Assembly: GCA_903840825.1 (NCBI GenBank)
Contig: CAIMHL010000561.1
Location: 1 to 46,706, forward strand
Origin: an uncultured beta proteobacterium
GTDB lineage: Bacteria > Pseudomonadota > Gammaproteobacteria > Burkholderiales > Burkholderiaceae_C
Direction: 5' to 3'
Length of the DNA: 46,706 nt
In this document: in pieces, positions 3,282 through 42,520 of the stretch
Numbering within the stretch: position 1 is the first letter of the stretch
How the letters are laid out: each line of letters begins with the position of its first letter
Position numbers and translations under genes: made by a program
Notes under the pieces: model-generated
Seen by the model: the letters and a program-made list of their open reading frames with translations, nothing else
The model's database searches: none
What the model was told of the DNA's origin: nothing

Positions 3282-4046
3282 TCAGGGCAGCCAACGCAGC
3301 TGGCTCAGGTAAGCCAGGCTTTGGCCTTGCGTATTGTCGCTGTCAGCGCCCACCGCTATGGCGATGATGGGCGGGGTGCTGGCGCTCTCGGCGCCAAACA
3401 GGGCCTGAAAATCGTCCGCCACCCGGCGTTGCTGCGTTTGCCACTGACCGCTTGGGTTGCCAGGCCCATTGAGCACGATGTAGCGCACGCGCGCCGAGTA
3501 GGGGTTGGCCCCTGAGGTACCGATGGGGCTGCGCGCATCCCACACATAGCACAGCGTAGCCGAGGGCAAGTCTTGCCCGGTGGCGGTGCGGGCCAGCGCC
3601 AGCGCGGCGCGCTGCAAAAAGGGGATGTCGGCGGTGGCTTGGTCAAACATGACACACACTTTGAGCGCGGCGTCATCCCCGGCTTTGGTGCTCAAGTTGG
3701 CGTTGGCTACCGGCTGGGTCACGCGCCAGCGCCAGGCCAAATGGGCCGGCGCTGGGCCTTGCCAGGCGTGGGTGAGGACGCCATAGGATTTGTCGGTGCT
3801 GATCTGCAACACCGCCTCGCCGCCTGCGCTGGTCACTTCAAATTTAGCGATTGGCACCTTGAGCTTGGCAGGCAGCCCCGTCAAACGCCAAGCGGGGTGC
3901 AGCGCTGGGCGGGCCGTGTCGCCGTCGCTGTCGCTGAAAGGCGCCAAAGCCAGGGTCGGTAGTGAATTTTGAGCAAAACAGGCTGTGGAGAACGCCAGTA
4001 TTGCTAGAGCAGCTATTAAATTAATAGTTGGTAATGCAGGATACAT
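3282..4046 (-). CDS. Secreted DUF3047 domain protein
   Basis: LAWRWRV, KAGDDAALKVCVMF, LCYVW and IAVGADSDNT motifs; signal peptide after ATG 4046, which directly follows the upstream stop. Confidence 0.8.
   Translation of the reverse strand: MYPALPTINLIAALAILAFSTACFAQNSLPTLALAPFSDSDGDTARPALHPAWRLTGLPAKLKVPIAKFEVTSAGGEAVLQISTDKSYGVLTHAWQGPAPAHLAWRWRVTQPVANANLSTKAGDDAALKVCVMFDQATADIPFLQRAALALARTATGQDLPSATLCYVWDARSPIGTSGANPYSARVRYIVLNGPGNPSGQWQTQQRRVADDFQALFGAESASTPPIIAIAVGADSDNTQGQSLAYLSQLRWLP
3966..4028 (-). repeat. 63-bp dispersed motif copy E1
   Basis: ACTATTAATTTAATAGC-TGCTCTAGCA...GCCTGTTTTGCTCAAAAT; encodes TINLIAALAILAFSTACFAQN. Confidence 0.8.
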
Positions 4047-4048
4047 GC

Positions 4049-6256
4049 TTAGCCTCGTTTCCAAGTGTGGTACTTGGCGGCCCACTTTAAGAGCTGTTGC
4101 GGGGCGTGTGCCCGTTTCCACTCGCCAGCGGCGTATTTGTTGGCCTCTGACATCGTGGGGTAGGTATGAATCGTACCCAAAATTTTCGACAAACCCAAGC
4201 CATGTTTCATGGCCAGCACGTACTCGGCCAGCAAATCCCCGGCATGGTGGCCGACGATCGTGACGCCCAAAATAGTGTCTTTCCCCGGCACGGTGAGCAC
4301 CTTCACAAAGCCCTGGGTCTGGCTGTCGGCCAAGGCGCGGTCGAGGTCGGCCAGGTCGAATTTAGTGACTTCAAACGCGGTATTTTGCGCGCGGGCCTCT
4401 TGCTCGTTCAGGCCCACACGGGCTACTTCGGGGTCGGTAAAGGTAGCGCGGGGGATCACGCGGTAGTCAACCTTGAACTTTTTGACCCCGCCAAAAAGCG
4501 CGTTGACCGCCGCATACCAAGCCTGATGCGCAGCCACATGGGTCAGCTGATACGGCCCGGCCACGTCGCCTGCGGCATAAATATTGGGGTAGATAGTTTC
4601 CAGGTAGTCGTTGGTTTGCACGGTTTTGGTGGTGGCAATGCCCAGGTCTTCCAGCCCGTAACCGGTGAGGCGGGCACTGCGGCCCACGGCGCACAGCAGG
4701 GCGTCAAATTCGATGTTCAGGCAAGCGCCCCCGTGTTCCACTACCAGCACGCCGGGGCCAAAGGTGTCCACACGCGGCGATGCCCCCGCCAGCGGCTCGC
4801 AGCGCACGGCGCGGTGTTGGTTCAGCAGGCGCACGCCGTCGGCTTGCAGCGACGCGGCCACTACCTCTGCCGCGTGCTCGTCCTCGCCCATCAGCAGGCG
4901 GGGCGCCATCTCTACCAGCGTCACCGCAGCGCCCAAGCGGGCAAAACTTTGCGCCAACTCGCAGCCAATCGGCCCACCACCCAAAACCACCAAGCGCTGA
5001 GGAAGGGCGTCAAGCTGCGCAAAAGCCTCCCACAGCGTGTCGCTGGTCAAAAAGCCCACCGCCTGCAAGCCGGGCAAGGGCGGCACGGTGGGCCGAGCCC
5101 CGGCGGCAATCACGATGGCGCGGGTGGACAGGCGCTGTACCTGGGGCGGTGCGTCACCAACGCCGGGCTGGGTAATCTCAACCGTCCAAGGGTTGACGAT
5201 GCGGGCGTGGCCGCTGAGTACCTCCACGCCCAGGGCGGTGTAGCGCTCAACGCTGTCGTGCGGCGCAATGGAGGCCACTACGGCGTTGATGCGCTGCATC
5301 ACGGCCTTGAAGCTGAACACCGGCGTGGTGTCTTGCAAGCCATAGCGCGCACCGTGCGCTTGGTCGTGGGCTATTTGGGCGCTTTTAATCAGGGCTTTGC
5401 TGGGGACACATCCGTAGTTCAGGCAGTCGCCGCCCATTTTGTGGGCCTCAATCAGCGTGACTTTGGCTTTTACAGCGGCGGCAATGTAGGCCGTGACCAA
5501 GCCCCCGGCACCGGCGCCAATCACGATCAGGTTGCGGTCAAACTGCGCAGGCTTTAGGTGCTGCCAGCGGGCGTAAACCTGGCGCTTGTTCAAGGTCAGG
5601 GCCGCCCAGCGCGCCAACAAGGGAAAGAGGCCGAGCAGCACCAAAGAGCCCAACAAGGCCGGGCTCAAAATGCCTTTGAGGGACTCCAGTTGTGCCAGTT
5701 GCGTGCCCGCATTCACATACACCGCCGTGCCCGCCAGCATGCCCAGTTGGCTGACCCAGTAATAGGTCCAGGTGCGCATCTGGGTCAAGCCCATCAGCAA
5801 GTTGATGACAAAAAACGGCACAAGAGGTACCAAGCGCAGGGTGAACAGGTAAAACGCCCCCTCTTTTTTTACGCCTTGGTTAAATTCGGCCAGGCGCGAT
5901 CCAAAGCGGGCCTCCAGCCGGTCACGCATCAGAAAGCGGGCGGTCAAAAAGGCCAGAGTCGCCCCCATGCTGGAGGCAAACGACACGATGAGCGTGCCCC
6001 AAGCCACGCCAAAAACGGCACCGCCGAGCAAGGTCAGCATCACCGCACCGGGAAAAGAGAGCGCGGTGACGACCACATACACCGCAAAGTAGCCCGCCAC
6101 AAACGTCAGGGGCTGCGCGCTGTACCACTGGTTCAAGTCTGACTGGCTACTTTTGATGAACTCAAAACTGAGATAGCGACCCCCATCAAACCAAAAAAAG
6201 GCCGCGAGGAGAGCAACGAGGACGAGCAGAAGAAGTTGTTTTTTGGAGTTCATCAT
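4049..6256 (-). CDS. DedA/TVP38 membrane domain fused to a class-I pyridine nucleotide-disulfide oxidoreductase (MerA/Lpd-like)
   Basis: N-terminal hydrophobic domain with LRLVPLVPFFVIN; then GAGAGG, GGDCLNYGCVPSK (redox disulfide), GGGPIGCE, AAGDV, HTYPTMSE. ATG 6256 overlaps the upstream stop (ATGA). Confidence 0.9.
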   Translation of the reverse strand: MMNSKKQLLLLVLVALLAAFFWFDGGRYLSFEFIKSSQSDLNQWYSAQPLTFVAGYFAVYVVVTALSFPGAVMLTLLGGAVFGVAWGTLIVSFASSMGATLAFLTARFLMRDRLEARFGSRLAEFNQGVKKEGAFYLFTLRLVPLVPFFVINLLMGLTQMRTWTYYWVSQLGMLAGTAVYVNAGTQLAQLESLKGILSPALLGSLVLLGLFPLLARWAALTLNKRQVYARWQHLKPAQFDRNLIVIGAGAGGLVTAYIAAAVKAKVTLIEAHKMGGDCLNYGCVPSKALIKSAQIAHDQAHGARYGLQDTTPVFSFKAVMQRINAVVASIAPHDSVERYTALGVEVLSGHARIVNPWTVEITQPGVGDAPPQVQRLSTRAIVIAAGARPTVPPLPGLQAVGFLTSDTLWEAFAQLDALPQRLVVLGGGPIGCELAQSFARLGAAVTLVEMAPRLLMGEDEHAAEVVAASLQADGVRLLNQHRAVRCEPLAGASPRVDTFGPGVLVVEHGGACLNIEFDALLCAVGRSARLTGYGLEDLGIATTKTVQTNDYLETIYPNIYAAGDVAGPYQLTHVAAHQAWYAAVNALFGGVKKFKVDYRVIPRATFTDPEVARVGLNEQEARAQNTAFEVTKFDLADLDRALADSQTQGFVKVLTVPGKDTILGVTIVGHHAGDLLAEYVLAMKHGLGLSKILGTIHTYPTMSEANKYAAGEWKRAHAPQQLLKWAAKYHTWKRG

Positions 6257-6858
6257 GAGAATGTGCGCCAACCCCAGCCAATGCGGGTGGCGATGGTGAC
6301 CGCACACAGCGCGGCAAAGACGTAGGCCAGTGTGGCGAAATGTTGCGGCCACACACACATGGCCGCAAAGAAGGCCAGGGTTTCCGTGGCCTCGGTCAGG
6401 CCGCCTAAAAAGTAAAACGACTTATTCGGCACGGCCAGGTTTTTGAGCCCGCGTTGAGCGGCGATCACGGCAAAGGCCAAAAAGCTCGACCCCGTGCCGA
6501 TAAAAGCCGCCAACAACACGGCGGCAGGCAAGGCGTTGTGGGCGGGGTCGGCCACGGCAAAGGCCAGTGGAATGCTGGCGTAAAACAAAAAATCCAGTGC
6601 AATGTCCAAAAAACCACCAGCATCGGTGGCGTGGGTCAGGCGCGCTAGCGCACCATCCAGGGCATCGAAAAGTCTTGAGATAAAAATAGCCACGACGCCC
6701 GCCAGATATGCTTGACCAGCTATTAAAAAAGCACCGAACAGCCCGATTAAAAAGCCCATCACCGTGACTTGGTTAGCGCGCAGACCCAGGCTTTGCAGGC
6801 CTTGGGCCAAACGGGTGATGCCGGGTTTGATGAGGGCGGTCAGGATGCGGTCAAGCAT
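6253..6858 (-). CDS. ynjF: CDP-alcohol phosphatidyltransferase family, YnjF-like
   Basis: DALDGALARLTHATDAGGFLDIALD signature; KSFYFLGGLTEATET. Confidence 0.85.
   Translation of the reverse strand: MLDRILTALIKPGITRLAQGLQSLGLRANQVTVMGFLIGLFGAFLIAGQAYLAGVVAIFISRLFDALDGALARLTHATDAGGFLDIALDFLFYASIPLAFAVADPAHNALPAAVLLAAFIGTGSSFLAFAVIAAQRGLKNLAVPNKSFYFLGGLTEATETLAFFAAMCVWPQHFATLAYVFAALCAVTIATRIGWGWRTFS
6673..6735 (-). repeat. 63-bp dispersed motif copy E2
   Basis: GGTGCTTTTTTAATAGC-TGGTCAAGCA...GCTATTTTTATCTCAAGA; left arm degenerate. Confidence 0.7.
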
Positions 6859-7489: not shown

Positions 7490-7510
7490 GAGCCGCCATT
7501 GTCGAGGTTT

Positions 7511-10630: not shown

Positions 10631-10634
10631 TCGC

Positions 10635-11354: not shown

Positions 11355-12554
11355 TTATTGACCGTAGCGCTTAATCCACTCACGTTCCAGCGCGCTGGTC
11401 CAGCTGCCGTGGGGCTCGGGCAGCGTGGGCGTGAATTTTTCAACCTGGCCGGGTTGGCGCCCTGAGGTGAACAAAGCCTGGTCGGCGCTGGGGAGTTTGG
11501 AGATATCCAGCACAGTGGGGTCGCCCCACTGGGCAATGTCGGCTTTGCGCGCCTGCGCCTCGGGGCTGAGCAAAAAGTTGGCCACGACCTGCGCGCCAGC
11601 ATGAGCTGTTGCGTTGAAAGGAATAGCCAAAAAGTGCGTGTTGCCGATCGTGCCCTTGCTAAATTGATAGCTGGCTACGGATGCTGCCATTCGCTTGGCG
11701 GCTATTTCGTTGGCGGCTTCGTTGGGGTTGAAGGTGAAGCCTAGCAGCAGTTCTCCATCGGCCATCATCTGGCGCAGTGCCCCGGCGTTGTTGGGAAACT
11801 GCTTGCCTGCGCGCCACAAATGGGGGTGCAAGGCGTCCAAAAAAGCCCACAGCGGGGTGCCTGCTTTGGCCAAAGCCTCAGGGGTGGCGGGCTTGTAAAG
11901 GGCGCTTGTGTTGGTGTTGACTTCAAGCAGTGCTTGCTTGAGGAAGGTGGCGCCCATGAAGTCGGGCACGCGCGGGTAGGTGATGCGCCCGGCGTTCGCT
12001 TTGGCAAATGCCAGCAGCTCAACCATGCTTTGTGGGGGCTTGGGCACGCGCTTGGTGTCTGCGTAAAACGTGAGTTGCGCCATGCCCCAAGGAGCTTCCA
12101 TACCTTCAACCGGCTCCGAGAAGTCCAGGCGGGTGGTGGGCTTGCCCAGTACATCCACAAAAGCAAAATTGGGCAAGCTCTCGGCAAACGGGCCAAAGAG
12201 CAGCTTTTCGCGCTTCATGGACAAGAAGTTTTCACCGTTGATCCAAACCAGATCGACTGAGCCTTCGCTCAATTTGCCCGCTGTTTTCTCAATGCGCACG
12301 CGCTTGACTACTTCAGCGGTGTCGGTGATTTTGACGTGGACCAGCGTCACGCCCAAGCGCTTTTGTACCTGGTCGCCTGCCCACTGCAGGTAGGTGTTGA
12401 TATTTTGGCTACCCGCCCAGGCGTTGAAGTAAACGGTTTGGCCGCGTGCTTTTTTTTCTATGGCGGGCCAGGTGGCGGTTTGCGCTTGCAAAGGTGAGGT
12501 CAGTGCCGCGCCTGCCAAGAGCAGGGTTTGGCGGCGTGTGAGGGTGAAGTTCAT
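11355..12554 (-). CDS. ynjB: ABC transporter substrate-binding protein, YnjB-like, Tat-type signal
   Basis: TRRQTLL signal; ARGQTVYFNAWAGS, VDLVWINGENF, IGNTHFLAIPFN, WGDPTVL; start overlaps the ftsY stop (ATGA). Confidence 0.85.
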   Translation of the reverse strand: MNFTLTRRQTLLLAGAALTSPLQAQTATWPAIEKKARGQTVYFNAWAGSQNINTYLQWAGDQVQKRLGVTLVHVKITDTAEVVKRVRIEKTAGKLSEGSVDLVWINGENFLSMKREKLLFGPFAESLPNFAFVDVLGKPTTRLDFSEPVEGMEAPWGMAQLTFYADTKRVPKPPQSMVELLAFAKANAGRITYPRVPDFMGATFLKQALLEVNTNTSALYKPATPEALAKAGTPLWAFLDALHPHLWRAGKQFPNNAGALRQMMADGELLLGFTFNPNEAANEIAAKRMAASVASYQFSKGTIGNTHFLAIPFNATAHAGAQVVANFLLSPEAQARKADIAQWGDPTVLDISKLPSADQALFTSGRQPGQVEKFTPTLPEPHGSWTSALEREWIKRYGQ

Positions 12555-15108: not shown

Positions 15109-15127
15109 ACCCTTGTTTTTGTCCCTT

Positions 15128-16495
15128 ATGAATACTCTTAAAACAATAGCTTCTCTAGCACGCTGTACGGCGCTTTCAGGTCTATTTCTTGTAAATTTAG
15201 CTTGGGCTGGCATTCCCATAGAGCACTGGACACAGCCCTCGGGCGTGCAGGTGTTTCTGGCCAATAGCCCCGGCATTCCCATGGTGGATGTGCAAATTGA
15301 CTTTGACGCCGGCAGCCGCCGTGACCCCGTGCTGCAAGCTGGCCTGGCCAGCCTCACGGCCAGCATGGCCGCCAAAGGCCTACGCGCTGGTGCCGATGGT
15401 GCCCCGGCGTTGGATGAAAACACCTTGGGCGAAGCCTGGGCTGACCTCGGCGCCTCTTTTGGCGGTGGCGCGGGCAACGACCGCATGAGCTTCTCCCTGC
15501 GCTCCCTGACCTACCCCGACCTGCTTACCAAAGCCACCCAGCTGGCGGCCCGTCAACTCGGCGAGCCCGCCTTCCCCGAAGCCATTTGGGCGCGTGAACG
15601 CAGCACCCTCAACGCCGCACTCAAAGAGGCCAACACCCGCCCGGCTACTTTGGTGGCGCGGGCCTTCAATGCCGCGGTTTATGGCCAGCACCCCTACGGT
15701 TTCGAGATGACCGAGGCCACCCTAGCCCGTATTAATGTGGCCGATATGCAGACTTTTTACCGCACGATGGTGCAACCCTGCCGAGCCGTCGTGACGGTGG
15801 TGGGTGCCGTTGACCGGGTGCAGGCTGACGCGCTGGTCAGCACCTTGTTTGCCCGTCTGGCCTTGTCTCAGGCCGCCAGCCAACCCGGCGCTTGCCCGGC
15901 CTTGCCCGTTGTGGGTGAAGTGGTTGCCTTGGAAAAGCCGCAAGACCTGCGCATCGCCTTTGACTCAGCCCAGGCCCATGTGCTGATCGGTCAACCTGGC
16001 TACAAGCGTAATGACCCTGACTTCTTTGCCCTCACGGTGGGCAACTACATTTTGGGTGGTGGCGGCTTTGTCTCGCGCTTAACCCATGAGGTGCGGGAAA
16101 AACGCGGCCTGAGCTACAGCGTGTACAGCTTCTTTGCGCCTGGCCTGCACGCCGGTGCGTTCACCCTGGGTCTGCAAACCCGGCCCGACCAGGCGGCCCA
16201 AGCGGTCAAGGTTTCCAAAGACGTGGTGGCCGAATTCGTCGCCAACGGTCCGCTTGATGCCGAACTCAAAGCCGCCAAAGACAACCTGATGGGCGGCTTT
16301 GCTCTGCGCGTGGACAGCAACCGCAAACTGCTCGACAACATCGCCAACATCGCCTGGAACCAGCTCCCCCTCAACTACCTCGACACCTGGACCCAGCAGA
16401 TCGAGAGGGTGAGCGCCGCCGACATCAAGGCCGCCTTTGCACGCAAATTGCAGCCGCAAAAAATGGTGACGGTGGTGCTGGGGGCGGGGGAGTAA
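15128..16495 (+). CDS. M16 peptidase, non-catalytic partner subunit
   Basis: Lacks HxxEH; has GGGFVSRLTHEVREKRGLSYSV; signal peptide. Confidence 0.9.
   Translation: MNTLKTIASLARCTALSGLFLVNLAWAGIPIEHWTQPSGVQVFLANSPGIPMVDVQIDFDAGSRRDPVLQAGLASLTASMAAKGLRAGADGAPALDENTLGEAWADLGASFGGGAGNDRMSFSLRSLTYPDLLTKATQLAARQLGEPAFPEAIWARERSTLNAALKEANTRPATLVARAFNAAVYGQHPYGFEMTEATLARINVADMQTFYRTMVQPCRAVVTVVGAVDRVQADALVSTLFARLALSQAASQPGACPALPVVGEVVALEKPQDLRIAFDSAQAHVLIGQPGYKRNDPDFFALTVGNYILGGGGFVSRLTHEVREKRGLSYSVYSFFAPGLHAGAFTLGLQTRPDQAAQAVKVSKDVVAEFVANGPLDAELKAAKDNLMGGFALRVDSNRKLLDNIANIAWNQLPLNYLDTWTQQIERVSAADIKAAFARKLQPQKMVTVVLGAGE
15134..15196 (+). repeat. 63-bp dispersed motif copy E3
   Basis: ACTCTTAAAACAATAGC-TTCTCTAGCA...GGTCTATTTCTTGTAAAT; encodes TLKTIASLARCTALSGLFLVN. 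Confidence 0.8.
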
Positions 16496-16500
16496 AAATT

Positions 16501-16520
16501 AATTGGAATCTGACCCCCAT
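16501..16520 (+). repeat. Single REP-like arm
   Basis: AATTGGAATCTGACCCCCAT, 18/20 identical to the arm at 9312-9331. Confidence 0.65.
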
Positions 16521-16572
16521 TAGAGAAGCGGGTTGATGCAGAATCATTAGCGAGTTCAAGATTGGAGTAAAT

Positions 16573-16791
16573 ATGAACAGGATTACCTTGGAGCCTGGAA
16601 AGCGGGGCGGTAGGCCATGCATACGTGGTCTGCGGATTACTGTCTACGACGTACTGTCTATGTTGTCCAGTGGAATGTCGCAGCAAGAAATTCTGCAAGA
16701 CTTTCCGGCGCTGGAGCCTGAGGATGTGTTGGCGGTTTTGGCGTTTGCAGCGGATCGCGAGCACAAGGTTTTCTCGCTTGCTGTGCAATGA
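16573..16791 (+). CDS. DUF433 antitoxin
   Basis: PGKRGGRPCIRGLRITVYDVL...EILQDFPALEPEDVLAVLAFAA; GGAG RBS. Confidence 0.9.
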   Translation: MNRITLEPGKRGGRPCIRGLRITVYDVLSMLSSGMSQQEILQDFPALEPEDVLAVLAFAADREHKVFSLAVQ

Positions 16792-17181: not shown

Positions 17182-18471
17182 ATGAACCCAGCCAACAGCA
17201 TCCACGCCCCTCTGGCCGAGCGCCTGCGCCCCAAGCGCCTGAGTGAGGTGGTGGGGCAGCAGCATTTGCTGGGTGAAGGCATGGCGCTGCGCCTGGCTTT
17301 TGAGTCGGGCCAGCCGCACAGCTGCATTTTGTGGGGGCCGCCGGGCACGGGCAAAACGACGATTGCGCGCTTGATGGCGTCGGCGTTTGAGGCGCAGTTC
17401 ATTTCTATTAGCGCCACGCTGGGCGGTGTCAAAGACATCCGTGAGGCGGTGGAGCTGGCCAAGCTGGCGCTGGCCCAAGGCCGCCGCACCCTCGTGTTTG
17501 TCGATGAAGTTCATCGTTTCAACAAGAGTCAGCAAGACGCTTTTTTGCCCCATGTGGAAAGCGGGCTGCTCACCTTCATCGGTGCCACCACGGAGAACCC
17601 TTCCTTCGAGGTCAATTCCGCGCTGCTGTCCCGGGCGGCGGTGTATGTGTTGCAGGCCTTGACGCCGCAAGATTTAGAGCAAATAGTGGTCCTGGCCCAA
17701 TCTCAGAAAGCTATATCAGCTATAGAAAAAATAGCGGTTGATCGGCTCGTGGCCTATGCCGATGGCGACGCCCGCAGGCTTCTCAACACGTTGGAAACGC
17801 TGGCTGTGGCCGCGAACCAGGAAAAACTCACCGAGATCACCGATGTCTGGCTGCTAAAGGTCTTGGGCGAGCGCATGCGCCGCTATGACAAAGGGGGCGA
17901 GCAGTTTTATGACACCATCAGCGCCCTGCACAAATCCGTGCGCGGTAGCGACCCCGATGCCGCCCTGTATTGGTTCACCCGCATGCTCGATGGTGGCGCC
18001 GACCCCCGCTACATGGCGCGCCGATTAATACGCATGGCCAGCGAAGACATCGGTTTGGCCGATCCCCGGGCTTTACGTCTGGCGCTGGATGCCGCTGATG
18101 TTTACGAGCGCCTTGGCACGCCCGAAGGTGAGTTGGCGCTGGCGGAGTGTGTGGTGTATCTGGCGGTGGCGGCCAAGTCGAATGCGGTTTACAAGGCGTT
18201 CAACGAAGTTAAAGCCTTCATCAAAAAAGACGGTACCCGCCCGGTGCCCATGCACCTGCGCAATGCTCCCACCAAGCTCATGAAAGAGTTGGACTATGGC
18301 AAGGGCTACCGTTACGCCCACGATGAAGAGGGTGGTTTTGCCGCCGGTGAGCACTATTTGCCCGATGGCATGACCAGCCCGGGCTTTTACCGCCCGGTGG
18401 AGCGCGGGCTCGAGATCAAAATTTCTGACAAGCTGAGGCAGCTTAAAAAGCGCAATAATCAGCAAAACTGA
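17182..18471 (+). CDS. rarA: Replication-associated recombination protein A (RarA/MgsA)
   Basis: [53 protein letters not shown]. Confidence 0.97.
17673..17735 (-). repeat. 63-bp dispersed motif copy E4 (antisense within rarA)
   Basis: GCTATTTTTTCTATAGC-TGATATAGCT...ACCACTATTTGCTCTAAA. Confidence 0.8.
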
Positions 18472-22246: not shown

Positions 22247-22272
22247 GCCCTTTATTGCAAGGAAACGCGCTT

Positions 22273-25726: not shown

Positions 25727-28054
25727 TTATGGGTGCCTTGAGGTCGTGCTGGCGTTAATCGCATTCAAGACGTTTTCGGCTGTCGCCGGCGCAGTCAAAT
25801 TTACATCACGCTGATTGAGTCCCCGCGCCTGCGCTACCGCATCCCTCAAAGCCTCAAACACGCTGATGGCCAGCATAAAGGGCGGCTCGCCCACGGCTTT
25901 GGAGCCAAACACGTTGTCTTCGCGGTTGGGCTCCGGCCAAAAGTCCACTTTAAAGTGCGCGGGCACATCGCCTGCAGTGGGTATTTTGTAGGTGCTGGGG
26001 GCGTGGGTGCTTAAATTTCCTTTGTCGCTCCAGACCAGTTGCTCGGTGGTGAGCCAGCCCATGCCTTGCACGAAGCCGCCTTCAATTTGCCCCAGGTCGA
26101 TGGCCGGGTTGATGCTTTGGCCTACGTCATGCAGGATGTCTACCTTCAGCACGCGGCTCTCGCCGGTCAGGGTGTCAATGGCGACTTCGGTGCAAGCTGC
26201 ACCGTAGGCAAAGTAGTAAAAGGGGCGGCCGGTGAGGGTGGCTTTGTCGTAGTGAATTTTGGGCGTGCGGTAAAAGCCGTCGCTCCAAAGCTGTATGCGG
26301 TTGGCGTAAGCCATTTTGACCACCTCGTCAAACGAGCGGGTGGTCTTTGGGGATGTGATCTTTCCCGACTCAAAGCGCACGGCCCCAGCGCCGCAGCTGT
26401 CCAAGCCGCTCACAAACTGCGCTAAATTATCGCGCACATGGCGCGCGGCAAACTGTGCAGCGCGCCCGTTGAGGTCGGTGCCGGCCGATGCCGCCGTGGC
26501 GCTGGCGTTGGGGATTTTGCTGGTGTCGGTGGCGCTCACCCGCACGCGCTCAAAGGCCACGCCCAGCTCGTCCGCCACAATTTGTGCCACCTTGGTGTTG
26601 AGACCCTGGCCCATTTCGGTGCCGCCGTGGTTGACCTCTACGCTGCCGTCCAAGTACACATGCACCAGCGCACCGGCTTGGTTAAACAGTGTGGCGGTGA
26701 ATGAAATACCAAACTTGACCGGCGTGATGGCAATGCCGCGCTGGATGACTGGGCTCTGGGCGTTGTAAGCCGAAATAGCCTCGCGGCGATGACGATAGTG
26801 CGAGGACAGCTCTAACTTTGCTAGCAATGGCTGCAAGATGTTGTCTTCCACCCGCATGCCGTAGTGCGTGGTGTTGCGCGCCTGCTCGGGCTGCGCGGGG
26901 TTGCCGGTCAGGTCTTCGTCGTAGAGGTTACTCAGGCGCACATCTAGCGCATCAAGCCCCAGGTGGCGGGCGATGTCGCTCAATATGGCTTCAATCACGA
27001 TCATGCCCTGCGGCCCACCGAAGCCGCGAAAGGCGGTGTGGCTTTGGGTGTGGAGCTTGCAGCGGTACGACGAAATGGCCACGTCTTCTAAAAAGTAGGC
27101 GTTGTCGGCGTGAAAGATGGCGCGGTCGGCCACGGGGCCGGACAGGTCGGCGCTGAAGCCGCAGTTAGCGGCCATCATGAGTTGCAAGCCGCACAGGCGA
27201 CCGGTGTCGTCAAAACCTGCGGTGTATTCATAGGCAAACGGATGGCGCTTGCCGGTGACCATGAAGTCGTCGTCGCGGTCCAGGCGCAGCTTGATGGGGC
27301 ATTTGAACTTGTGCGCCGCCACTGCCGCCCACACGGCCAGGTGGCCGGCCTGCGTTTCTTTGCCCCCAAAGCCGCCGCCCATGCGCCGGCATTCCACGCG
27401 CACGGCGTGGTTGTCCAGGCCCAAAGCGTGCGCCACCCAGTGCTGCACCTCACCGGGGTGCTGCGTGCTGGAGTGCACCACCCACTGGTTTTGCTCTTGG
27501 GGTAGCACGTAGGCAATTTGGCCTTCTAAATAGAAGTGCTCTTGCCCGCCGACCTCCAGCGTGCCGCTCAGGGTGTGCGGCGCGCACGCCAGCGCAGCAG
27601 CAGCGTCGCCCCGGTTGACAAAGACCGGCGGCAGCACATAGCTTTTGGCTTCCAGGGCAGCCTGAATGCTCAAAATGGCAGGCAGGGGGGTGATGTTGAG
27701 TTGCACACGGCGTGCCGCGTGGCGGGCCTGCATGACCGAATCAGCCACTACCAAGCCAATTACTTGGCCGATGTGCTGCACGGTGTCTGTGGCAAACACC
27801 GGCTCATCGCCCGCAAAAGCGGCCAGCATGGGGTGGCCAGGCACATCGCACGCCAACACGATGCCGCGCACGCCAGGCATGGCCCGCGCAGCGTCAGCGT
27901 TCACACCCAATAGCTGCCCGTGCGCCACGGTGGACAAAATGGGCGCAGCAAAAAGCGTGCCCCGCACCTCCGGCAAATCATCCACGTAATTGACAGCCCC
28001 CGCCACCTGCGCCACCGCACTCTCATGCACCTTGGATTGCCCTGCCGCGCTCAT
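25727..28054 (-). CDS. xdhB: Xanthine dehydrogenase molybdopterin-binding subunit
   Basis: GQEHFYLEG, RRMGGGFGGKE, AFRGFGGPQG, TPVKFGISF, SKAVGEPP. Confidence 0.95.
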   Translation of the reverse strand: MSAAGQSKVHESAVAQVAGAVNYVDDLPEVRGTLFAAPILSTVAHGQLLGVNADAARAMPGVRGIVLACDVPGHPMLAAFAGDEPVFATDTVQHIGQVIGLVVADSVMQARHAARRVQLNITPLPAILSIQAALEAKSYVLPPVFVNRGDAAAALACAPHTLSGTLEVGGQEHFYLEGQIAYVLPQEQNQWVVHSSTQHPGEVQHWVAHALGLDNHAVRVECRRMGGGFGGKETQAGHLAVWAAVAAHKFKCPIKLRLDRDDDFMVTGKRHPFAYEYTAGFDDTGRLCGLQLMMAANCGFSADLSGPVADRAIFHADNAYFLEDVAISSYRCKLHTQSHTAFRGFGGPQGMIVIEAILSDIARHLGLDALDVRLSNLYDEDLTGNPAQPEQARNTTHYGMRVEDNILQPLLAKLELSSHYRHRREAISAYNAQSPVIQRGIAITPVKFGISFTATLFNQAGALVHVYLDGSVEVNHGGTEMGQGLNTKVAQIVADELGVAFERVRVSATDTSKIPNASATAASAGTDLNGRAAQFAARHVRDNLAQFVSGLDSCGAGAVRFESGKITSPKTTRSFDEVVKMAYANRIQLWSDGFYRTPKIHYDKATLTGRPFYYFAYGAACTEVAIDTLTGESRVLKVDILHDVGQSINPAIDLGQIEGGFVQGMGWLTTEQLVWSDKGNLSTHAPSTYKIPTAGDVPAHFKVDFWPEPNREDNVFGSKAVGEPPFMLAISVFEALRDAVAQARGLNQRDVNLTAPATAENVLNAINASTTSRHP
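26763..26825 (-). repeat. 63-bp dispersed motif copy E5 (within xdhB)
   Basis: GCTAGCAAAGTTAGAGC-TGTCCTCGCA...GAGGCTATTTCGGCTTACAA. Confidence 0.7.
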
Positions 28055-29535
28055 GTGTTTTGCCCTTCCAAAGCGTCCAAATCACTCAACTCAAAGTCTT
28101 CCAAGTTGATGTTTTTAACCCCTTGGCTTTCCAACCAAAAGCGCTGTAGCAAATTACCCAGTACTTGTACGCGGTAGTTGGCGCTGGCGCGCAGGTCTGA
28201 CAGGGGGGTGAATTCTTGGCGCAGAGTAGCCATGGCTTGGGTGATGGTGGCTTGCGTCCAGGGTTTGCCGGTCAAAGCGGCCTCGGTTTGCACCGCGCGC
28301 ATTGGCGTGGCGGCTACGCCACCGGCGCCTATTGAGGCGCTCACCACCTGGCCCGCCACCACATGCACTTGAAGCGCCAGACACACCGCCGAGATGTCGT
28401 CTTCAAAGCGTTTGCTGATCTTAAAAACGCGCGAGAACTCACCCGGCGTGGCTTTGGGCACCTTTATCCAGGCCAGCACTTCGTCGCTGAGTAGTACATT
28501 TTTTCGGTAGCCCGTATAAAAATCTTCCAGCGGCATGTCGCGCTGGCCGCGCTCGCTCATCAGCACCACGCGGCTGCCCAGCGCAATGAGCAAGGGCATG
28601 GTGTCGCCAATGGGTGAGCCATTGGCCACGTTGCCGCCCAGCGTGCCCGAGTTGCGCACGGGCAGTCCGGCAAAGCGGGCGGCGAAGGTGTGCAGGTGAG
28701 GGCGGTCGGCTACCAAGGCGGCAAAGGCTTGGGTCAGGGTGGCGGCGGCGCCAATGCGCAATTCATGCGGGTGGTCTTCAATCTGCCTGAGCTCCTGCAC
28801 CCGGCTTACGTCCAGCACCTGCGCAAAGTTCATGTGCAGTTTGTTGACCCACAGACCTACATCGGTGCAGCCTGCCACGATTTGCGCCTGCGGGTGTTGG
28901 GCGCGTGCGCTTAGCAGGGCGGCCAAGGTGGTGGGTAAAATATATGAAGAATCTGGCTCTAGACCAATAGAAGCCTGCTTAATTAGCTCCAATTTTTGTA
29001 GCAGTTCAGCTTCATTGACCTGCACTGGGGGCAGGCTTTGCATCTGCAGGGCCGCCTCCAAAATAGGCCGGTAACCCGTGCAGCGGCACAAATTGCCAGA
29101 GAGCACCTCGGTGGCTTGCGCCCGCGAGAGCGCCTCCGTTTTGCCTTGCTGGTTTTGGTACAGGCCAAACAAACTCATGGCAAACCCCGGCGTGCAAAAG
29201 CCGCACTGGCTGCCGTGGCACTGCACCAGCGCTTGTTGGGCCGGGTGCAGCGTGCCGTCCTCAGGGGCAATGTCCTCAACCGTCCAAAGCGCCAAGCCGT
29301 TCACCGAATGGGCCATCCGGATGCAGCTGTTGACCGCGCTGTACTTGATTTGGCCGCCGCTGGCCTCGCCTAGCACCACGGTGCAGGCGCCGCAGTCGCC
29401 TTCGTTGCAGCCTTCTTTGGTGCCGGTGCATTGCAAATCTTCGCGCAAAACCTCCAGCAGGGTGCGGGTGGGTGGTACATTGCGCAGCGTGACAAGTTCG
29501 CCGCGCCGTACAAATTGAATGACGTGATGGTTCAT
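28051..29535 (-). CDS. xdhA: Xanthine dehydrogenase small subunit (2Fe-2S + FAD)
   Basis: GTKEGCNEGDCGACT, QCGFCTPG, GNLCRCTGY, GGNVANGSPIGD, KISKRFEDDIS. Confidence 0.95.
   Translation of the reverse strand: MNHHVIQFVRRGELVTLRNVPPTRTLLEVLREDLQCTGTKEGCNEGDCGACTVVLGEASGGQIKYSAVNSCIRMAHSVNGLALWTVEDIAPEDGTLHPAQQALVQCHGSQCGFCTPGFAMSLFGLYQNQQGKTEALSRAQATEVLSGNLCRCTGYRPILEAALQMQSLPPVQVNEAELLQKLELIKQASIGLEPDSSYILPTTLAALLSARAQHPQAQIVAGCTDVGLWVNKLHMNFAQVLDVSRVQELRQIEDHPHELRIGAAATLTQAFAALVADRPHLHTFAARFAGLPVRNSGTLGGNVANGSPIGDTMPLLIALGSRVVLMSERGQRDMPLEDFYTGYRKNVLLSDEVLAWIKVPKATPGEFSRVFKISKRFEDDISAVCLALQVHVVAGQVVSASIGAGGVAATPMRAVQTEAALTGKPWTQATITQAMATLRQEFTPLSDLRASANYRVQVLGNLLQRFWLESQGVKNINLEDFELSDLDALEGQNT
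28940..29002 (-). repeat. 63-bp dispersed motif copy E6 (within xdhA)
   Basis: GCTACAAAAATTGGAGC-TAATTAAGCA...CTAGAGCCAGATTCTTCATATAT. Confidence 0.8.
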
Positions 29536-38750: not shown

Positions 38751-38823
38751 TACCTGCACAATGCAAAGCTGCAAAAAATAGCCTAAACTGATTTTTTTTT
38801 AATTAAAAACCAGAGGATTCCCA

Positions 38824-39720
38824 ATGTTTGCCGCTCATCAAAAAGACGACTTCAATTCCTTGCTGCCCGGACAAAGCACCGAGCAAGGTGCCACCCGCCG
38901 CACTGCCTTGAAAGTAGCGCTGGGCGCTGGCTACGCAGCAGCCGCGCTGCCCATCATGGCGCAAACCGCGATCAAAACATCGGCCGAAGGATTGCGCTCA
39001 GGTGAGGTGAGCTTTGAAGTCAACGGTTTTAAGGTGCCTGCTTTCTTTGCCGCGCCTGCCGGGGGTGCCAACTTGCCCGTGGTGCTGGTGGTGTCCGAGA
39101 TTTTTGGCGTGCATGAGTACATTGCCGACACCTGCCGGCGCTTTGCCAAAGCGGGCTATCTGGCAATTGCGCCCGAGCTTTTTGCGCGCCAGGGCGACCC
39201 ACAAGCCTACGGTGAAATAGCCAAACTCATGAGTGAGGTGGTGGCCAAAGTCCCTGATGCGCAAGCCATGGCCGATCTTGATGGCGCCGTGAAGTGGGCG
39301 GGCGCTCATGGTGGCAACCTCGACAAAGTGGCCATTACCGGCTTTTGTTGGGGCGGGCGTATGACCTGGTTGTACGCCGCGCAGGGCCCGGTTAAGGCCG
39401 GTGTCGCCTGGTATGGACGCTTGGTGGGCACACCGACCGCGCTAGCGCCCAAAAACCCCGTTGACTTGGTGGGCCAACTGCGCGCGCCGGTGCTGGGTTT
39501 GTATGGCGAGAAGGACGGTGGCATTCCTTTGACCTCGGTAGAGCAGATGAAAACCGCCTTGGCACAAGGCACCGAAGCCGCCAAAGCCTCGCAGTTTGTC
39601 ACCTACCCGGACACGGGCCACGCCTTTCACGCCGACTACCGCCCTAGCTACAGCAAGGGTCCCGCTGAAGACGGTTGGGCACGCTGCTTGGCTTGGTTCA
39701 AGGCGCATGGCGTAGCCTGA
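38824..39720 (+). CDS. Dienelactone hydrolase family protein
   Basis: EIFGVHE, GFCWGG nucleophile, GHAFHADYRPSY; TRRTALK twin-arginine-like motif. Confidence 0.9.
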   Translation: MFAAHQKDDFNSLLPGQSTEQGATRRTALKVALGAGYAAAALPIMAQTAIKTSAEGLRSGEVSFEVNGFKVPAFFAAPAGGANLPVVLVVSEIFGVHEYIADTCRRFAKAGYLAIAPELFARQGDPQAYGEIAKLMSEVVAKVPDAQAMADLDGAVKWAGAHGGNLDKVAITGFCWGGRMTWLYAAQGPVKAGVAWYGRLVGTPTALAPKNPVDLVGQLRAPVLGLYGEKDGGIPLTSVEQMKTALAQGTEAAKASQFVTYPDTGHAFHADYRPSYSKGPAEDGWARCLAWFKAHGVA

Positions 39721-39741
39721 TAAAGTCAGGCCCTCGCTGCG

Positions 39742-39765
39742 AAACCGCCGTCAGGCGGTTTTTTT
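39742..39765 (+). terminator. Rho-independent terminator
   Basis: AAACCGCC-GTCA-GGCGGTTTTTTT. Confidence 0.85.
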
Positions 39766-39824
39766 ATTACTTATTGGGTTCTAGTGCCCTTGGAATGTGT
39801 TTAACCAGCTATGACTTTAATAGC
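39762..39824 (-). repeat. 63-bp dispersed motif copy E7 (spans the ZIP start codon)
   Basis: GCTATTAAAGTCATAGC-TGGTTAAACA...CACTAGAACCCAATAAGTAATAAAA. Confidence 0.75.
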
Positions 39825-40617
39825 AATCTTGATGGGTACTTTATCCGCCGGCATTGGCAGCGTGTGGCTGGCCGCCTTGTTGAGCTTTGGTATTTTGTCG
39901 CGTTACACCCAGCACATGCTCAGTTTGGCAGCAGGCGCGCTGCTGGCCACGGCCTTTATGCATTTGCTGCCCGAGGCGTTTGAGAGCCAGGCCAGTGCGC
40001 ACGACTTGTTCATGACCTTGCTGGTTGGGCTGATCTTTTTCTTTTTGCTCGACAAAGCCGAGTTGTGGCACCACGGGCACGAGCACCACCATGGCATCCC
40101 TAGCCCGACCACCACCGCACACGCTGAACACGCAGGCCATGCGCACGGCCACAGCCATGTCCCGCAGCCTGGCACCTGGGCCGTGCTTACCGGCGACAGC
40201 GTGCATTGTTTTGGCGACGGCGTGCTGATTGCCTCGGCATTTATGGCCGATATGCGCCTGGGCGTGATTGCCTCGCTGGCCGTGCTGGCGCACGAGGTGC
40301 CGCACCACATGGGGGATTTGATGGTGCTGAAATCAAGCCCCAACAACCGCCGCACCGCGGTGCTCAAGGTCTCCTTGGCCGGGGCTGTGACGGCCTTGGG
40401 CGGCTTGCTGGGCTTTTGGTTGGTGGACCAGTTGCGCGACTATTTGCCCTACTTTCTGGTGGTAGCGAGCAGCAGCTTTGTCTACGTGGCGCTGGCTGAC
40501 TTGATTCCCCAGTTGCAAAAACGCCTGACCGCCCGGGAGACCGCCGCGCAAATCGCCTGGCTGCTGGCCGGCATTTTATTGGTCACGCAGGTGAGCGGTC
40601 TGGCGCACGCCCACTGA
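39811..40617 (+). CDS. ZIP-family metal transporter
   Basis: AAGALLATAFMHLLPEA, His-rich loop, GDSVHCFGDG, AHEVPHHMGD. Confidence 0.92.
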   Translation: MTLIAILMGTLSAGIGSVWLAALLSFGILSRYTQHMLSLAAGALLATAFMHLLPEAFESQASAHDLFMTLLVGLIFFFLLDKAELWHHGHEHHHGIPSPTTTAHAEHAGHAHGHSHVPQPGTWAVLTGDSVHCFGDGVLIASAFMADMRLGVIASLAVLAHEVPHHMGDLMVLKSSPNNRRTAVLKVSLAGAVTALGGLLGFWLVDQLRDYLPYFLVVASSSFVYVALADLIPQLQKRLTARETAAQIAWLLAGILLVTQVSGLAHAH

Positions 40618-40699
40618 TTGAGCAGTTACACGCTTTCCCTGTCACCTCGGACATGTACGCAATGCCGGGGATGGGCAATGTTCACTGGAATTGGGTGGC

Positions 40700-41187
40700 T
40701 CAGTGCGTCAGTGCAAACTTGATCACTTCCTGGCTCAACCAAATGCCTCGCTGGCGCATCCGCTCCAGGGCATCGGATATTGAGACATCGTACCCCAGTG
40801 ATTTTGCTTTGAGCAACACGCCAATAGAGCCTGTCACACTCAAATTGGACAAGCGCGCCATCCTTCTACCGACGGTCTCATCAATGCAAACGCGCTTAAC
40901 ACCAAGGTCAAGCGCCGTCTGAATCACGGATGCCTCGCCAAGGTCCAAAGCATTTTAAGATAAGGTGTCAGCGCGACCGGCGCGCGCCCTATTTCTAGCC
41001 AAGAAGCCGATTTGAAAACATCGACGCCAAATGCATCGTGACCGCCAGCCTGAATCTCTTGGGCCACCTCAAAGGGAACCACCACCCGGGTGTAAAGAAA
41101 CCGCAGCGCATCCAGACTGCCGGTGGCCGCCGTTAGCGCAATTAGCGGGGTGGTGTTGGTAACTATCGTTTGTTCAGATTCAGGCAT
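40700..41187 (-). pseudogene. DUF3368 PIN-domain toxin, split by a 1-bp deletion
   Basis: IVTNTTPLIAL...VVVPFEVAQEI in one ORF; LDLGEASVI, CIDETVGRRMA and GSIGVLLKAK in the next. One more A in CTTAAAATGCT (T4 at 40953-40956 on +) restores YLKNALDLGEA. Confidence 0.85.
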
Positions 41188-41428
41188 TGGCGAGATCTCG
41201 CGCCAAGTCTTCTTGATCAAGGTCGATCATTGGCACGCCGTAGCGATGCAACTCAGCCAAAAACTCGACCCTGCCCATACCGATCAATGACGCTGCCATC
41301 CCGGAGGAAAGGCGCTTCATTTCAAACAGCTTCACGGCCATCGACAATTTAGCCTCATGCAAAAACTCCTGCGGCGTGCAATGCGCAGCGTCGGGTAGGT
41401 TTGTAGGCACTTCAAGCACAAGTTGCAT
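41180..41428 (-). CDS. UPF0175 antitoxin
   Basis: EAKLSMAVKLFEMKRLSSGMAASLIGMGRVEFLAEL; GGAG RBS before ATG 41428. Confidence 0.88.
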   Translation of the reverse strand: MQLVLEVPTNLPDAAHCTPQEFLHEAKLSMAVKLFEMKRLSSGMAASLIGMGRVEFLAELHRYGVPMIDLDQEDLARDLANA

Positions 41429-41513
41429 GGGTTCTCCAAGTAAAGTTGGTTGACCGGACATTCTAAGTTGCGCAAACGTCAACGGTTGTCGACCCTGTCG
41501 ATGGGGCACGATG

Positions 41514-41557
41514 GACTGCCGCGCTGTATTCGTCAATGCGAGCGCAGCGCGGCAGTC
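41514..41557. repeat. Intergenic inverted repeat with 13-bp perfect arms
   Basis: GACTGCCGCGCTG (41514-41526) and CAGCGCGGCAGTC (41545-41557). Confidence 0.7.
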
Positions 41558-41611
41558 GCAGTGGCGAAGACCTTCGCGGCGAGGGCGCCGCTCCAACGGG
41601 GGTGATCCGCT

Positions 41612-42520
41612 TTAGCCTTGTGCCACAGGCCGGCTAGGGTCGCTGCACCAGTCGCTCCAGCTGCCGGCGTAAAGGGCGGTGGGGCCCAGTCCGGCAATTT
41701 CCATCGCGATGATATTGGGCACTGCGCTCACGCCACTGCCGCAGTGGTGGACCACGGTGGCGGGGTTGCGCCCGGCCAGCAGCGCCTCGAATTCGGCGCG
41801 CAAGGTGGCGGCGGGTTTGAAGAAGCCCTGGGCATCCAGGTTTTGCGTGAACGGGCGGTTGAGTGCGCCGGGCAGGTGGCCTGCCACCGGGTCGAGCGGC
41901 TCTACCTCGCCCCGAAAGCGTGCTGGAGCCCGGGCGTCGATCAAGGTTTGAGCGGGTCGGCCCAGATTGGCCGCTACGGTTTCAGTAGCTGCTAGAGCAA
42001 GCTTGGCGTGCTTCAGCGGGTAAATTCTCTTAAATTCAGCAGAAGCAGAAGCAGATACCAAAGCCGCCACCTCAAGCGCACAAGCGCCCGCATCAACCGC
42101 CCCATCCGCCGCCTGCCAGGCCTGAAAGCCGCCGTCTAGCACCAACACGTTCTCGTGCCCAGCCCATTTCAGCATCCACCACAAGCGCCCGCAGTAGTTG
42201 GCGCCTTGTCGGTCATAGACCACGGCGGTCATCTCAGGCGTGAGGCCTGTGCTGCCTAGCCACTGGGCAAACGTGTCGCGCGAGGGCAGGGGGTGGCGCC
42301 CGCCGGAGGCGGCATCTGGCGCTGACTTGGCCGCGCTCAGGTGGCGGTCCAGGTTGGCGCGCACCGCACCAAGAATGTGCGCTTGCGCGTACTGCAGGTC
42401 GCCCGCGTTGGGCGTCATCAGCTCAAAGCTGCAGTCAAACACCCGATAAGGCGCTCCGCTGGCCAGCAGCGATTGCAGCTGCGCCACAGAAATCAGGGGG
42501 CTGGACACGGGACTGGTCAT
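41612..42520 (-). CDS. sseA: Two-domain rhodanese sulfurtransferase (SseA-like)
   Basis: GGRHPLP, RLWWML, DARAPARFRG, HCGSGVSA, YAGSWSDW. Confidence 0.9.
   Translation of the reverse strand: MTSPVSSPLISVAQLQSLLASGAPYRVFDCSFELMTPNAGDLQYAQAHILGAVRANLDRHLSAAKSAPDAASGGRHPLPSRDTFAQWLGSTGLTPEMTAVVYDRQGANYCGRLWWMLKWAGHENVLVLDGGFQAWQAADGAVDAGACALEVAALVSASASAEFKRIYPLKHAKLALAATETVAANLGRPAQTLIDARAPARFRGEVEPLDPVAGHLPGALNRPFTQNLDAQGFFKPAATLRAEFEALLAGRNPATVVHHCGSGVSAVPNIIAMEIAGLGPTALYAGSWSDWCSDPSRPVAQG
41973..42035 (+). repeat. 63-bp dispersed motif copy E8 (antisense within sseA)
   Basis: GCTACGGTTTCAGTAGC-TGCTAGAGCA...GCGGGTAAATTCTCTTAAAT. Confidence 0.8.

Follow-up and report, generated by a model that had tools for sequence, protein, structure and literature searches.

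Why should a stretch of about 63 bp recur, gap for gap, inside unrelated genes of one betaproteobacterial genome? Within the window, the 46,706-bp stretch of DNA analyzed here, a preliminary description had listed eight copies and proposed that they are conserved as DNA rather than as protein and constitute sites for a DNA-binding protein with a bend-prone arm. The coordinates, strands and gap-free alignment of these copies were all reproduced, as were the base counts on which the motif rests (AGCT in 8/8 copies, T21, A24 and GC25-26 in 7/8 each); seven copies lie wholly within open reading frames (ORFs) and the eighth overlaps an ORF start. The copies, scored with the genome-wide matrix, and the modules of the element, mapped on the copy at 15134, are as follows:

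3966..4028, minus strand: copy, 57 bits; sense, in frame, where ORF 3282-4121 (minus) encodes a signal-peptide-like N-terminus
6673..6735, minus strand: copy, 45 bits; sense, in frame, within ORF 6253-6858 (minus)
11655..11717, plus strand: marginal ninth match, 12 bits, under the 16-bit cut-off; antisense in ORF 11355-12554 (minus)
15134..15196, plus strand: copy, 57 bits; codes the signal-peptide-like N-terminus (MNTLKTIA...) of ORF 14972-16495 (plus)
15134..15151, plus strand: module P1, dyad GCTAY-W7-RTAGC plus T18, centered on position 9
15154..15178, plus strand: module P2 (positions 21-45), second dyad, centered on position 32; the part that varies among lineages
15179..15198, plus strand: module P3 (positions 46-65), GC box and two A/T tracts at 51-54 and 60-65
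17673..17735, minus strand: copy, 46 bits; antisense within rarA (17182-18471, plus), with an orthologous copy in several genera
26763..26825, minus strand: weak copy, 21 bits; sense, shifted frame, in ORF 25727-28054 (minus)
28940..29002, minus strand: copy, 58 bits; sense, shifted frame, in ORF 28051-29535 (minus)
39762..39824, minus strand: copy, 56 bits; occupies the gap 3' of ORF 38824-39720 (plus) and overlaps the start of ORF 39811-40617 (plus)
41973..42035, plus strand: copy, 51 bits; antisense within ORF 41612-42520 (minus)

A matrix built from the eight window copies alone gave 376 matches of at least 14 bits outside the window's contig, and iterated scanning with a copy cut-off of 16 bits yielded 385 copies of a 45-bit element in the genome. 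The genome-wide rate is one per 8.5 kb rather than the one per 6 kb or so estimated from the window. The preliminary description had staked the element on a match rate above that of codon-shuffled genomes and on a constant spacing between core and 3' arm. At 20 bits or more, the real genome contains 386 matches and three codon-shuffled genomes 9-10; at 40 bits or more the figures are 275 and 0, and the reversed genome gives a single match. The offset between core and 3' arm is constant in 290 of 306 scored cores, the remaining 16 being shifted by one position in either direction.

Conservation extends from about position -3 to 66, giving an AT-rich element of 63-66 bp that occurs singly and without strand bias, roughly half of its copies being genic. 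The palindrome described at its 5' end corresponds to P1, whose invariant core is AGCT at 15-18; the second dyad and a weak third one had been missed. No dyad exhibits Watson-Crick covariation among the aligned copies, which excludes a hairpin, and the window has no Rfam match at gathering score. The A/T tracts are helically phased and present an excess of AA/TT and a deficit of TA (at positions 52-53, 0.86 versus 0.55 and 0.03 versus 0.19, respectively), a pattern typical of shape readout. The phasing of GC and AT along the element, periodic at about 10.5 bp, matches a wrapped arm of some five helical turns, with a gain of 4.9 bits over composition shuffles at the registers of a bendable arm of about 47 bp. 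Second-order local dependence fully accounts for the similarity among copies. Their spacing is more even than random (0 pairs closer than 365 bp versus 12.7, and 40 closer than 2 kb versus 62); the nearest neighbors in the genome are 365 bp apart, and neither inverted pairs nor tandem arrays were found among the copies. These features support conservation at the DNA level, the behavior of a protein-binding site and a bend-prone arm.

At least 190 copies are genic and colinear with orthologues, 98 of them lying mid-gene as sense and 92 as antisense sequence, and 149 of the 190 use only two of the six frames. When 77 genic copies were aligned with orthologues, 35 proved gap-free and only 6 faced a gap of at least 10 residues. 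Site density falls with gene conservation, from 16.2 through 8.8 and 2.5 to 0 per 100 kb between genes of 45-60% and those of at least 80% identity; foreign-looking genes are poorer in sites, and genic sites are retained at synonymous positions. Of 180 intergenic copies, 55 lie between convergent genes (12.7% expected) and 18 in divergent regions (28.6% expected, p=2e-9). Of the 43 gaps of 63-100 bp between convergent genes, 21 contain the site, and none of 104 divergent gaps shorter than 100 bp does, although convergent enrichment may merely reflect the positions of least harm. No link was found with the direction or level of transcription, nor any bias 3' of highly expressed genes or toward the ends of gene runs. 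In the one complete genome mapped, 77 strict matches display no ori/ter pattern, the largest gaps (about 310-320 kb, near ter and in the left arm) being within chance. A role in segregation or any replication polarity is likewise unsupported, with 45 of the 77 on the leading strand (p=0.17).

The site is restricted to one family, identified as Comamonadaceae from the nearest named relatives, and its presence across that family bears out the mention of similar sequences there in the preliminary description. In all, about 135 site-rich and about 275 site-poor genomes were tallied, the site-rich species including the harmless Rhodoferax antarcticus and Simplicispira psychrophila. Among 144 genomes of the genus it is abundant in 71 and nearly absent in 51, and in some lineages all sites are gone together. 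The copy in rarA holds the same position across genera and leaves a protein fossil in genomes without the site. It is found in 20 of the 29 closest relatives, each with at least 66 genome-wide matches, and is missing in the other nine, each with at most 24; for the very closest relative the comparison covered this rarA locus. Where it is present (n=37), GC3 is 0.33 in this segment versus 0.77 in the remainder of the gene; where it is absent (n=53), the values are 0.81 and 0.80. Lineages differ in their dialect of the site, with P2 as the variable dyad: as judged by eye, its half-sites change symmetrically among genomes (GCGCTT/AAGCGC, GCCCTT/AAGGGC, GTGCTT/AAGCAC), as would fit recognition by a dimer, and in some lineages P2 is asymmetric.

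We found no description of the whole 63-bp element in the open-access literature, nor a match to any characterized element or regulator site, but fragments of it had been tabulated. Tong, Schliekelman and Mrazek (2017; PMC5217627) reported the motif pairs GCTTAT-N5-AAGCG in Acidovorax ebreus and ATAGCT-N22-CAAAAG in Polaromonas naphthalenivorans, which correspond to element positions 25-40 and 13-46; the pairs of Rhodoferax ferrireducens in their Table S2 (140, the highest of any genome) also map onto it. They already noted the convergent bias of motif pairs, which they treated as separate, mostly intergenic single-genome motifs without function; the full element, its spread, its dialects and the overprinting of genes do not appear in the available portions of that text and supplement.

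Our preferred reading, put forward tentatively, is that of a double-stranded DNA site of fixed length at which a protein complex that the cell can do without bends or wraps the DNA. Such a complex, specific to the family, would engage the 63-66 bp site within the cell and would likely organize the chromosome at intervals of about 8 kb. If binding by its protein reader were graded, sites could arise step by step where coding sequence tolerates the changes, or else be captured at the junctions between genes; they would then follow the reader as its specificity drifts, and decay once its gene is lost. Dispersed double-stranded sites of nucleoid proteins, often genic and orientation-free, are known in matS, the SlmA and Noc boxes and IHF sites. 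Unlike these, the element is four to five times longer, numbers several hundred copies and shows no ori/ter zoning in the one complete genome mapped, and no IHF consensus was recognized in it by eye. Besides the asymmetry of P2 in some lineages and the missing links to ori/ter and transcription, two considerations weigh against this reading: accumulation driven by DNA uptake would be expected to produce the identical distribution, and at 45 bits the element carries three times the information required for 385 sites, an excess that one ordinary reader leaves unexplained.

A search for the reader covered ten candidate genes or families, none of which tracks the site. ComEC (79/80 genomes) and the ComP/PilE family (PF16732; 78/80) occur irrespective of it; AddB (51/80) and a winged-helix protein with an H1-like linker (13/80) are found in both classes of genome; and Y1 transposases are present in 5/5 genomes, site-rich and site-poor alike. 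Small HhH genes of the ComEA kind occur in 5/5 genomes, TIGR00426 matching mostly ORFs of about 800 residues. ScpB is present in 4/5 site-poor genomes, ArgP in 2/3 site-rich and 1/2 site-poor ones and a ParB-like protein in only 1/3 site-rich ones, while histone folds were twice sought and found in 0/5. Gene subtraction against a site-poor genome (2.8 of 2.99 Mb) was noisy and left about 2,000 genes.

The main rival, which we consider less probable, is that the site is a third, independently evolved signal for DNA uptake or transfer, in which a surface or periplasmic receptor favors site-bearing DNA, and uptake followed by homologous recombination spreads the site to tolerant positions. The genomic hallmarks reported for the uptake sequences DUS of Neisseriaceae and USS of Pasteurellaceae (PMC2817400, PMC1939737, bioRxiv 2025.10.24.684340) recur here: hundreds of copies on both strands without bias, a frame bias in genes, placement where conservation is lowest, avoidance of conserved and foreign-looking genes, a colinear origin by point mutation, and dialects. 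Yet DUS and USS have non-palindromic cores of 9-12 bp and often pair as inverted-repeat terminators, whereas the element spans 63 bp with dyads, is sparser, and lies unpaired. Genome-maintenance and competence genes, partly named by eye, hold 19 of the 190 genic sites against 4/70 (p=0.013), but the like-for-like comparison is non-significant (10/78 versus 4/70, p=0.17), and the competence genes listed above do not track the site. Natural transformability is known in members of the family (PMC4212676); however, Verminephrobacter eiseniae, for which there is evidence of selective uptake, has one unrelated pair and none of the site's word pairs in the available tables of Tong et al. Temperate phages carry the site (28 of 39 with an integrase or proviral), four conjugative plasmids (1.0 Mb) contain two matches, and a BLASTN search of plasmids with one copy returned chance-level matches only. 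Seven isolated phages (588 kb) have no match, which does not bear on lytic versus temperate carriage: of their hosts, Delftia acidovorans and Acidovorax citrulli seem from the tables of Tong et al. (PMC5217627) to be without the site.

The phages also supply an argument for a miniature mobile element that became domesticated, or a repeat of the REP kind, with copies inserted by a trans-acting enzyme and later kept, an origin that we consider unlikely. The gap at the phage recT-yqaJ junction measures 68-97 bp in the five loci that have the site; of 45 loci that lack it, 43 have a gap of -4 to +23. Chromosomal junctions with a site are likewise longer than their counterparts in a site-poor genome (median +20, n=20, versus -16, n=366; p=0.003), four of the 20 by 58-69 bp, and the length of the element is a multiple of three. 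Net insertion is seen at this one phage junction and at four of the 20 chromosomal ones. The proposal is otherwise mostly contradicted: there are no young, near-identical families (nearest-neighbor identity has a median of 0.68 and a maximum of 0.87), target-site duplications, tandem arrays and flanking transposases are absent, genic copies are colinear as detailed above, Y1 transposases do not discriminate site-rich from site-poor genomes, and a second phage junction shows no gain in length (three loci).

That the element serves gyrase or topoisomerase IV as a strong site, like the one in phage Mu, appears quite improbable. It resembles the gyrase motif in its enrichment between convergent genes and in an arm of some five turns along which GC and AT are phased; the phasing agrees with the wrapped arm in the gyrase matrix of E. 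coli, and the length with the 47-49-bp wrap (PMC6379681, PMC13284261), but the element has sharp base-specific boxes and no bias 3' of highly expressed genes. Scored with the E. coli matrix, whose values were rounded to two decimals, it averages +1.0 at its best register, where the genome mean is -2.4 +/- 3.8; with the same matrix alone, its best-in-span score is 4.7 versus 5.6 in random windows and AGCT is unfavored as a cut. The gyrase positioning suggested earlier is thus unsupported for a strong site of the E. coli type, and whole lineages have lost the site while the enzyme is essential.

LysR boxes have the form T-N11-A, and LysR-type operators join such a dyad to a weaker one, a layout to which the T3-N11-A15 dyad of P1 and the weaker dyad 23 bp away may be likened; a transcription-factor regulon or RNA-level signal is nonetheless very unlikely, and largely refuted by the avoidance of divergent promoter regions and the mid-gene location of half of the copies in both orientations, together with the lack of covariation and of Rfam matches and an ArgP that does not track the site. 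Chi (read by RecBCD/AddAB) and cyanobacterial HIP1 are over-represented signals that also overprint coding DNA, and addAB in this genome carry four copies of the element, but Chi and HIP1 measure 5-8 bp, and a polar signal such as Chi is rejected by the lack of replication polarity and of co-distribution with AddB. REP/BIME repeats with RAYT and the betaproteobacterial repeat BRE (about 90 bp, 69% GC, tandem; Hot et al. 2011, PMC3110155) are also dispersed, family-restricted and enriched 3' of genes, but, compared by description, the single, AT-rich, half-genic element offers no hairpin pairing and no GC-rich tandem copies of that length.

The few genome-wide overprinted signals of which we know (DUS, USS, Chi, HIP1 and short nucleoid boxes) are each far shorter than 63 bp. 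The signal described here reshapes some 200 proteins per genome, supplies signal peptides and stop codons, and persists in place across genera, and the sharp division of close relatives into those that have it and those that do not makes its reader findable. If it is a wrapped site, it would be a sequence-coded chromosome organizer with no known counterpart. Should it instead prove to be a family-wide 'self' signal five times the length of known uptake sequences, read by a DNA-wrapping receptor, a prospect we regard as less probable, it would mark a third independent origin of sequence-specific uptake; its drive would have rewritten hundreds of proteins per genome, leaving fossils in the lineages that lost it and dialects among lineages, and it would offer a handle for transforming an environmentally important family.

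The eight gap-free copies of the 63-bp element claimed in the preliminary description were all found in place in the window, which is contig C561 of the home genome (G000; 3.29 Mb, 688 contigs, 87% complete). A matrix built on these copies retrieved 376 further G000 matches at ≥14 bits outside C561, and its iteration converged on 385 sites with a median of 57 bits, the information content across the 63 positions being 45 bits (385 copies). The anticipated excess over codon-shuffled sequence was evaluated on three control genomes in which each gene's synonymous codons had been rearranged, yielding 9-10 matches at ≥20 bits and none at ≥40 bits against 386 and 275, respectively, in the real genome; a reversed genome yielded 1. 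Site scores are bimodally distributed, conservation drops off abruptly near -3 and 66, and the spacing between core and arm proved constant, with a fixed offset in 290 of the 306 cores with a scorable arm. The element comprises three modules, in element coordinates:

P1, positions 1-18: GCTAY-W7-RTAGC-T, with AGCT invariant
P2, positions 21-45: second dyad, centred on 32
P3, positions 46-65: GC box and two A/T tracts, in which AA/TT is preferred and TA avoided

Using custom gene calls, 190 of the 385 copies lie wholly within genes (a minimum, because several "intergenic" copies encode signal-peptide-like N-termini), 80 overlap a gene end and 115 are intergenic. Genic copies are evenly oriented (98 sense, 92 antisense), and two of the six frames take 149 of the 190. 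Both neighbours are available for 180 non-genic copies, which divide into 55 convergent (against 12.7% expected by length), 107 tandem and 18 divergent (28.6% expected). A site is present in 21 of the 43 convergent gaps that measure 63-100 bp and in none of the 104 divergent gaps below 100 bp. Spacing between sites is evener than random. We detected no asymmetry between genes transcribing into and away from sites (n=91, p=0.89) and no position bias within gene runs (n=81). All 77 strict matches in the complete genome G020 (dnaA at base 61) showed no significant strand bias (45 leading, 32 lagging; p=0.17) and no clear ori/ter zoning. The element is a double-stranded signal of fixed geometry that is maintained as DNA, with an even distribution and no preferred orientation.

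A single pattern (191 matches in G000, none in the reversed control) was used to survey relatives. Among 144 genus genomes, 71 had ≥40 matches, 22 had 5-39 and 51 had ≤4; among 300 family genomes, 64 had ≥30, 10 had 10-29 and 226 had ≤9; and 196 genomes from other families of the order had at most 6 each, these tallies covering related, non-independent genomes and a pattern that a strongly shifted dialect could escape. Two of the latter genomes, G532 and G563, carry four and two copies, respectively, that look genuine and lie on short contigs, attributable to either transfer or binning contamination. We take the family to be Comamonadaceae, because RarA has its nearest named relatives among Rhodoferax records. 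A stricter pattern gave 49 matches in Rhodoferax antarcticus, 30 in Simplicispira psychrophila and none in Variovorax paradoxus, Limnohabitans T6-5 or Acidovorax bellezanensis. By-eye reading of the matches indicates that P2 varies among lineages, often symmetrically.

The accessible text of Tong et al. 2017 (PMC5217627) gives two fragments of the element as unexplained motifs in A. ebreus and P. naphthalenivorans, notes the convergent bias of both and tabulates 140 R. ferrireducens pairs, which map onto the element. That text does not unite the fragments into one element; subscription literature or supplements could describe the whole. Its accessible tables list one pair for V. eiseniae, unrelated to the site, and only gene-internal pairs for D. 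acidovorans and A. citrulli, suggesting that these three species lack it. BRE, as described in the accessible part of PMC3110155, is a different repeat.

Of the 29 closest relatives, 20 carry the copy in rarA (window 17673-17735(-), gene 17182-18471(+)), and all of these are site-rich; the nine without it all have ≤24 matches genome-wide. The position of this copy is identical in Rhodoferax, Polaromonas, Acidovorax, Simplicispira and Comamonas loci. Among 98 distinct gap-free segments, GC3 is 0.33 with the site against 0.77 in the rest of the gene (n=37), and 0.81 against 0.80 without it (n=53). The peptide is similar in both cases, the site-less segment being a protein fossil, which suggests that the site is ancestral and was lost repeatedly. 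Three rarA copies (L299, L291, L313) carry an extra P1 15 bp upstream, adding five residues, and are nearer consensus than their relatives' copies, through either local duplication or patch replacement. Another copy found across genera codes, in many relatives, for the signal peptide of the gene that lies upstream of rarA, presumably lolA.

We tentatively favour, at somewhat short of even probability, an intracellular chromosome-organising role, on the grounds that the element is long, has dyads and a phased arm, and that V. eiseniae, the one relative with selective uptake, seems to lack the site. A protein complex of graded affinity, dispensable to the cell, would bend or wrap it. A DNA uptake signal, the main rival, is somewhat less likely and accounts for the distribution equally well. 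The accessible text of Davidson et al. 2014 (PMC4212676) reports that V. eiseniae, A. temperans and A. facilis are competent, uptake being selective in V. eiseniae, and names no uptake signal; DUS/USS genomic hallmarks were taken from the accessible parts of PMC2817400, bioRxiv 2025.10.24.684340 and PMC1939737. Genome-maintenance or competence genes make up 10 of 78 host genes that G000 shares with the site-poor genome G047 (comEC, dprA, mutL, mutS, uvrA, rarA, recN, ligA, dnaG, topB), against 4 of 70 length-weighted controls called at a stricter E-value (p=0.17). When hosts not shared with G047 and identified by eye are included (addA three times, addB, dinB, a second uvrA, dnaX, priA), the count rises to 19 of 190 sites (p=0.013), a bias that is suggestive only.

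In G000, addA with three copies and addB with one lie at C13:1619-7482; this AddB type is limited to 51 of the 80 family genomes, and the family is thus split in its double-strand-break machinery. None of ten candidate reader proteins tracked the site in panels of 5 or 80 genomes, and the reader gene may lie in the missing 13% of G000. ScpB was not found in G047, which has only about 900-1,500 genes in common with G000. A 241-aa protein (C71:2737-3459(-)) with a helical N-terminus, an Ala/Lys/Pro-rich H1-like linker and a weak winged-helix C-terminus, present in 13 of 80 genomes, all of the genus of G000, may be a nucleoid protein so far without a name and has no relation to the site.

A mobile element is improbable. 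Nearest-neighbour identity among copies (median 0.68, maximum 0.87) is near the value given by local second-order dependence, and no target-site duplication was found at copies. In G047 (2.8 of 2.99 Mb read, five copies at ≥15 bits), 82 G000 genic copies had an orthologue and 77 were alignable, 35 of them gap-free and 6 showing a gap that spans ≥10 residues; protein identity is 32% locally at the site against 58% over the whole gene, and the number of genic sites per 100 kb declines from 16.2 among genes of 45-60% identity to 0 among those of ≥80%. Loci L280 and L294 carry a copy where the colinear relative L310 differs chiefly in P1, and these together with the colinear orthologue alignments indicate that genic copies were carved from existing sequence. 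At the recT-yqaJ phage junction (50 of 80 loci surveyed), gaps are 68-97 bp with the site (5 loci) and -4 to +23 without it in 43 of 45, the other two having a gap of 72 from a mis-called upstream ORF. Chromosomal junctions with the site are longer in G000 than in G047 (median difference +20, n=20, against -16 for those without, n=366; p=0.003); a second phage junction, surveyed at three of four loci, showed no length gain. Carving and junction gain both point to a local advantage of carrying the site. Copies arise by substitution or capture, some lineages have lost the signal across the whole genome, and dialects exist.

IMG/VR held 95 matches, the 80 listed falling into 60 clusters with varied gene contexts; 54 matches lay on 39 long viral contigs, 28 of which have an integrase or are proviral, and four conjugative plasmids (1.0 Mb total) held 2. 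In phages L517, L518, L519 and L524, the 3' end of the site probably serves as ribosome-binding site for the following gene, and position 1 often has a stop codon next to it. The five copies in G047 resemble acquired DNA, two of them lying 780 bp apart (L077).

A topoisomerase site is very improbable. Gyrase facts were taken from the accessible parts of PMC6379681 and PMC13284261, and the E. coli gyrase frequency matrix in Table DS10 of PMC6379681 was applied to the 369 of 385 copies that have sufficient flank. Placed as a wrapped arm, the element fits, exceeding composition shuffles by +4.9 bits (registers -8/-9 and 70/71) with a period of about 10.5 bp; its absolute score is low on this E. 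coli matrix, which does not favour AGCT as the cut. We take the fit to reflect phased bendability rather than a gyrase site. A regulon or RNA signal is scarcely probable. No dyad exceeded expected pairing across the 385 copies (for example 5:13, 0.53 against 0.52; 26:38, 0.71 against 0.71), so the element is not a hairpin. No promoter-like sequence was found after its conserved stretch.

Apparent frameshifts split a gene that we take to be glycerate-kinase-like (window 22255-23590, overlapping ORFs 22255-22965 and 22805-23590) and hscA (C71:4802-6659, two pieces), and both may be assembly errors. Ribosomal protein genes on contig C353 share only ~37% identity with their G047 counterparts, and this contig is probably contamination (4.6% listed for the genome). 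Small gene pairs at window 40924-41596(-) and 16375-17129 resemble PIN-domain toxin-antitoxin modules.

The 63-bp site works like known overprinted signals, yet it fails membership in each. An intracellular organising role remains the reading that we favour; an uptake signal, if true, would be the more striking outcome.
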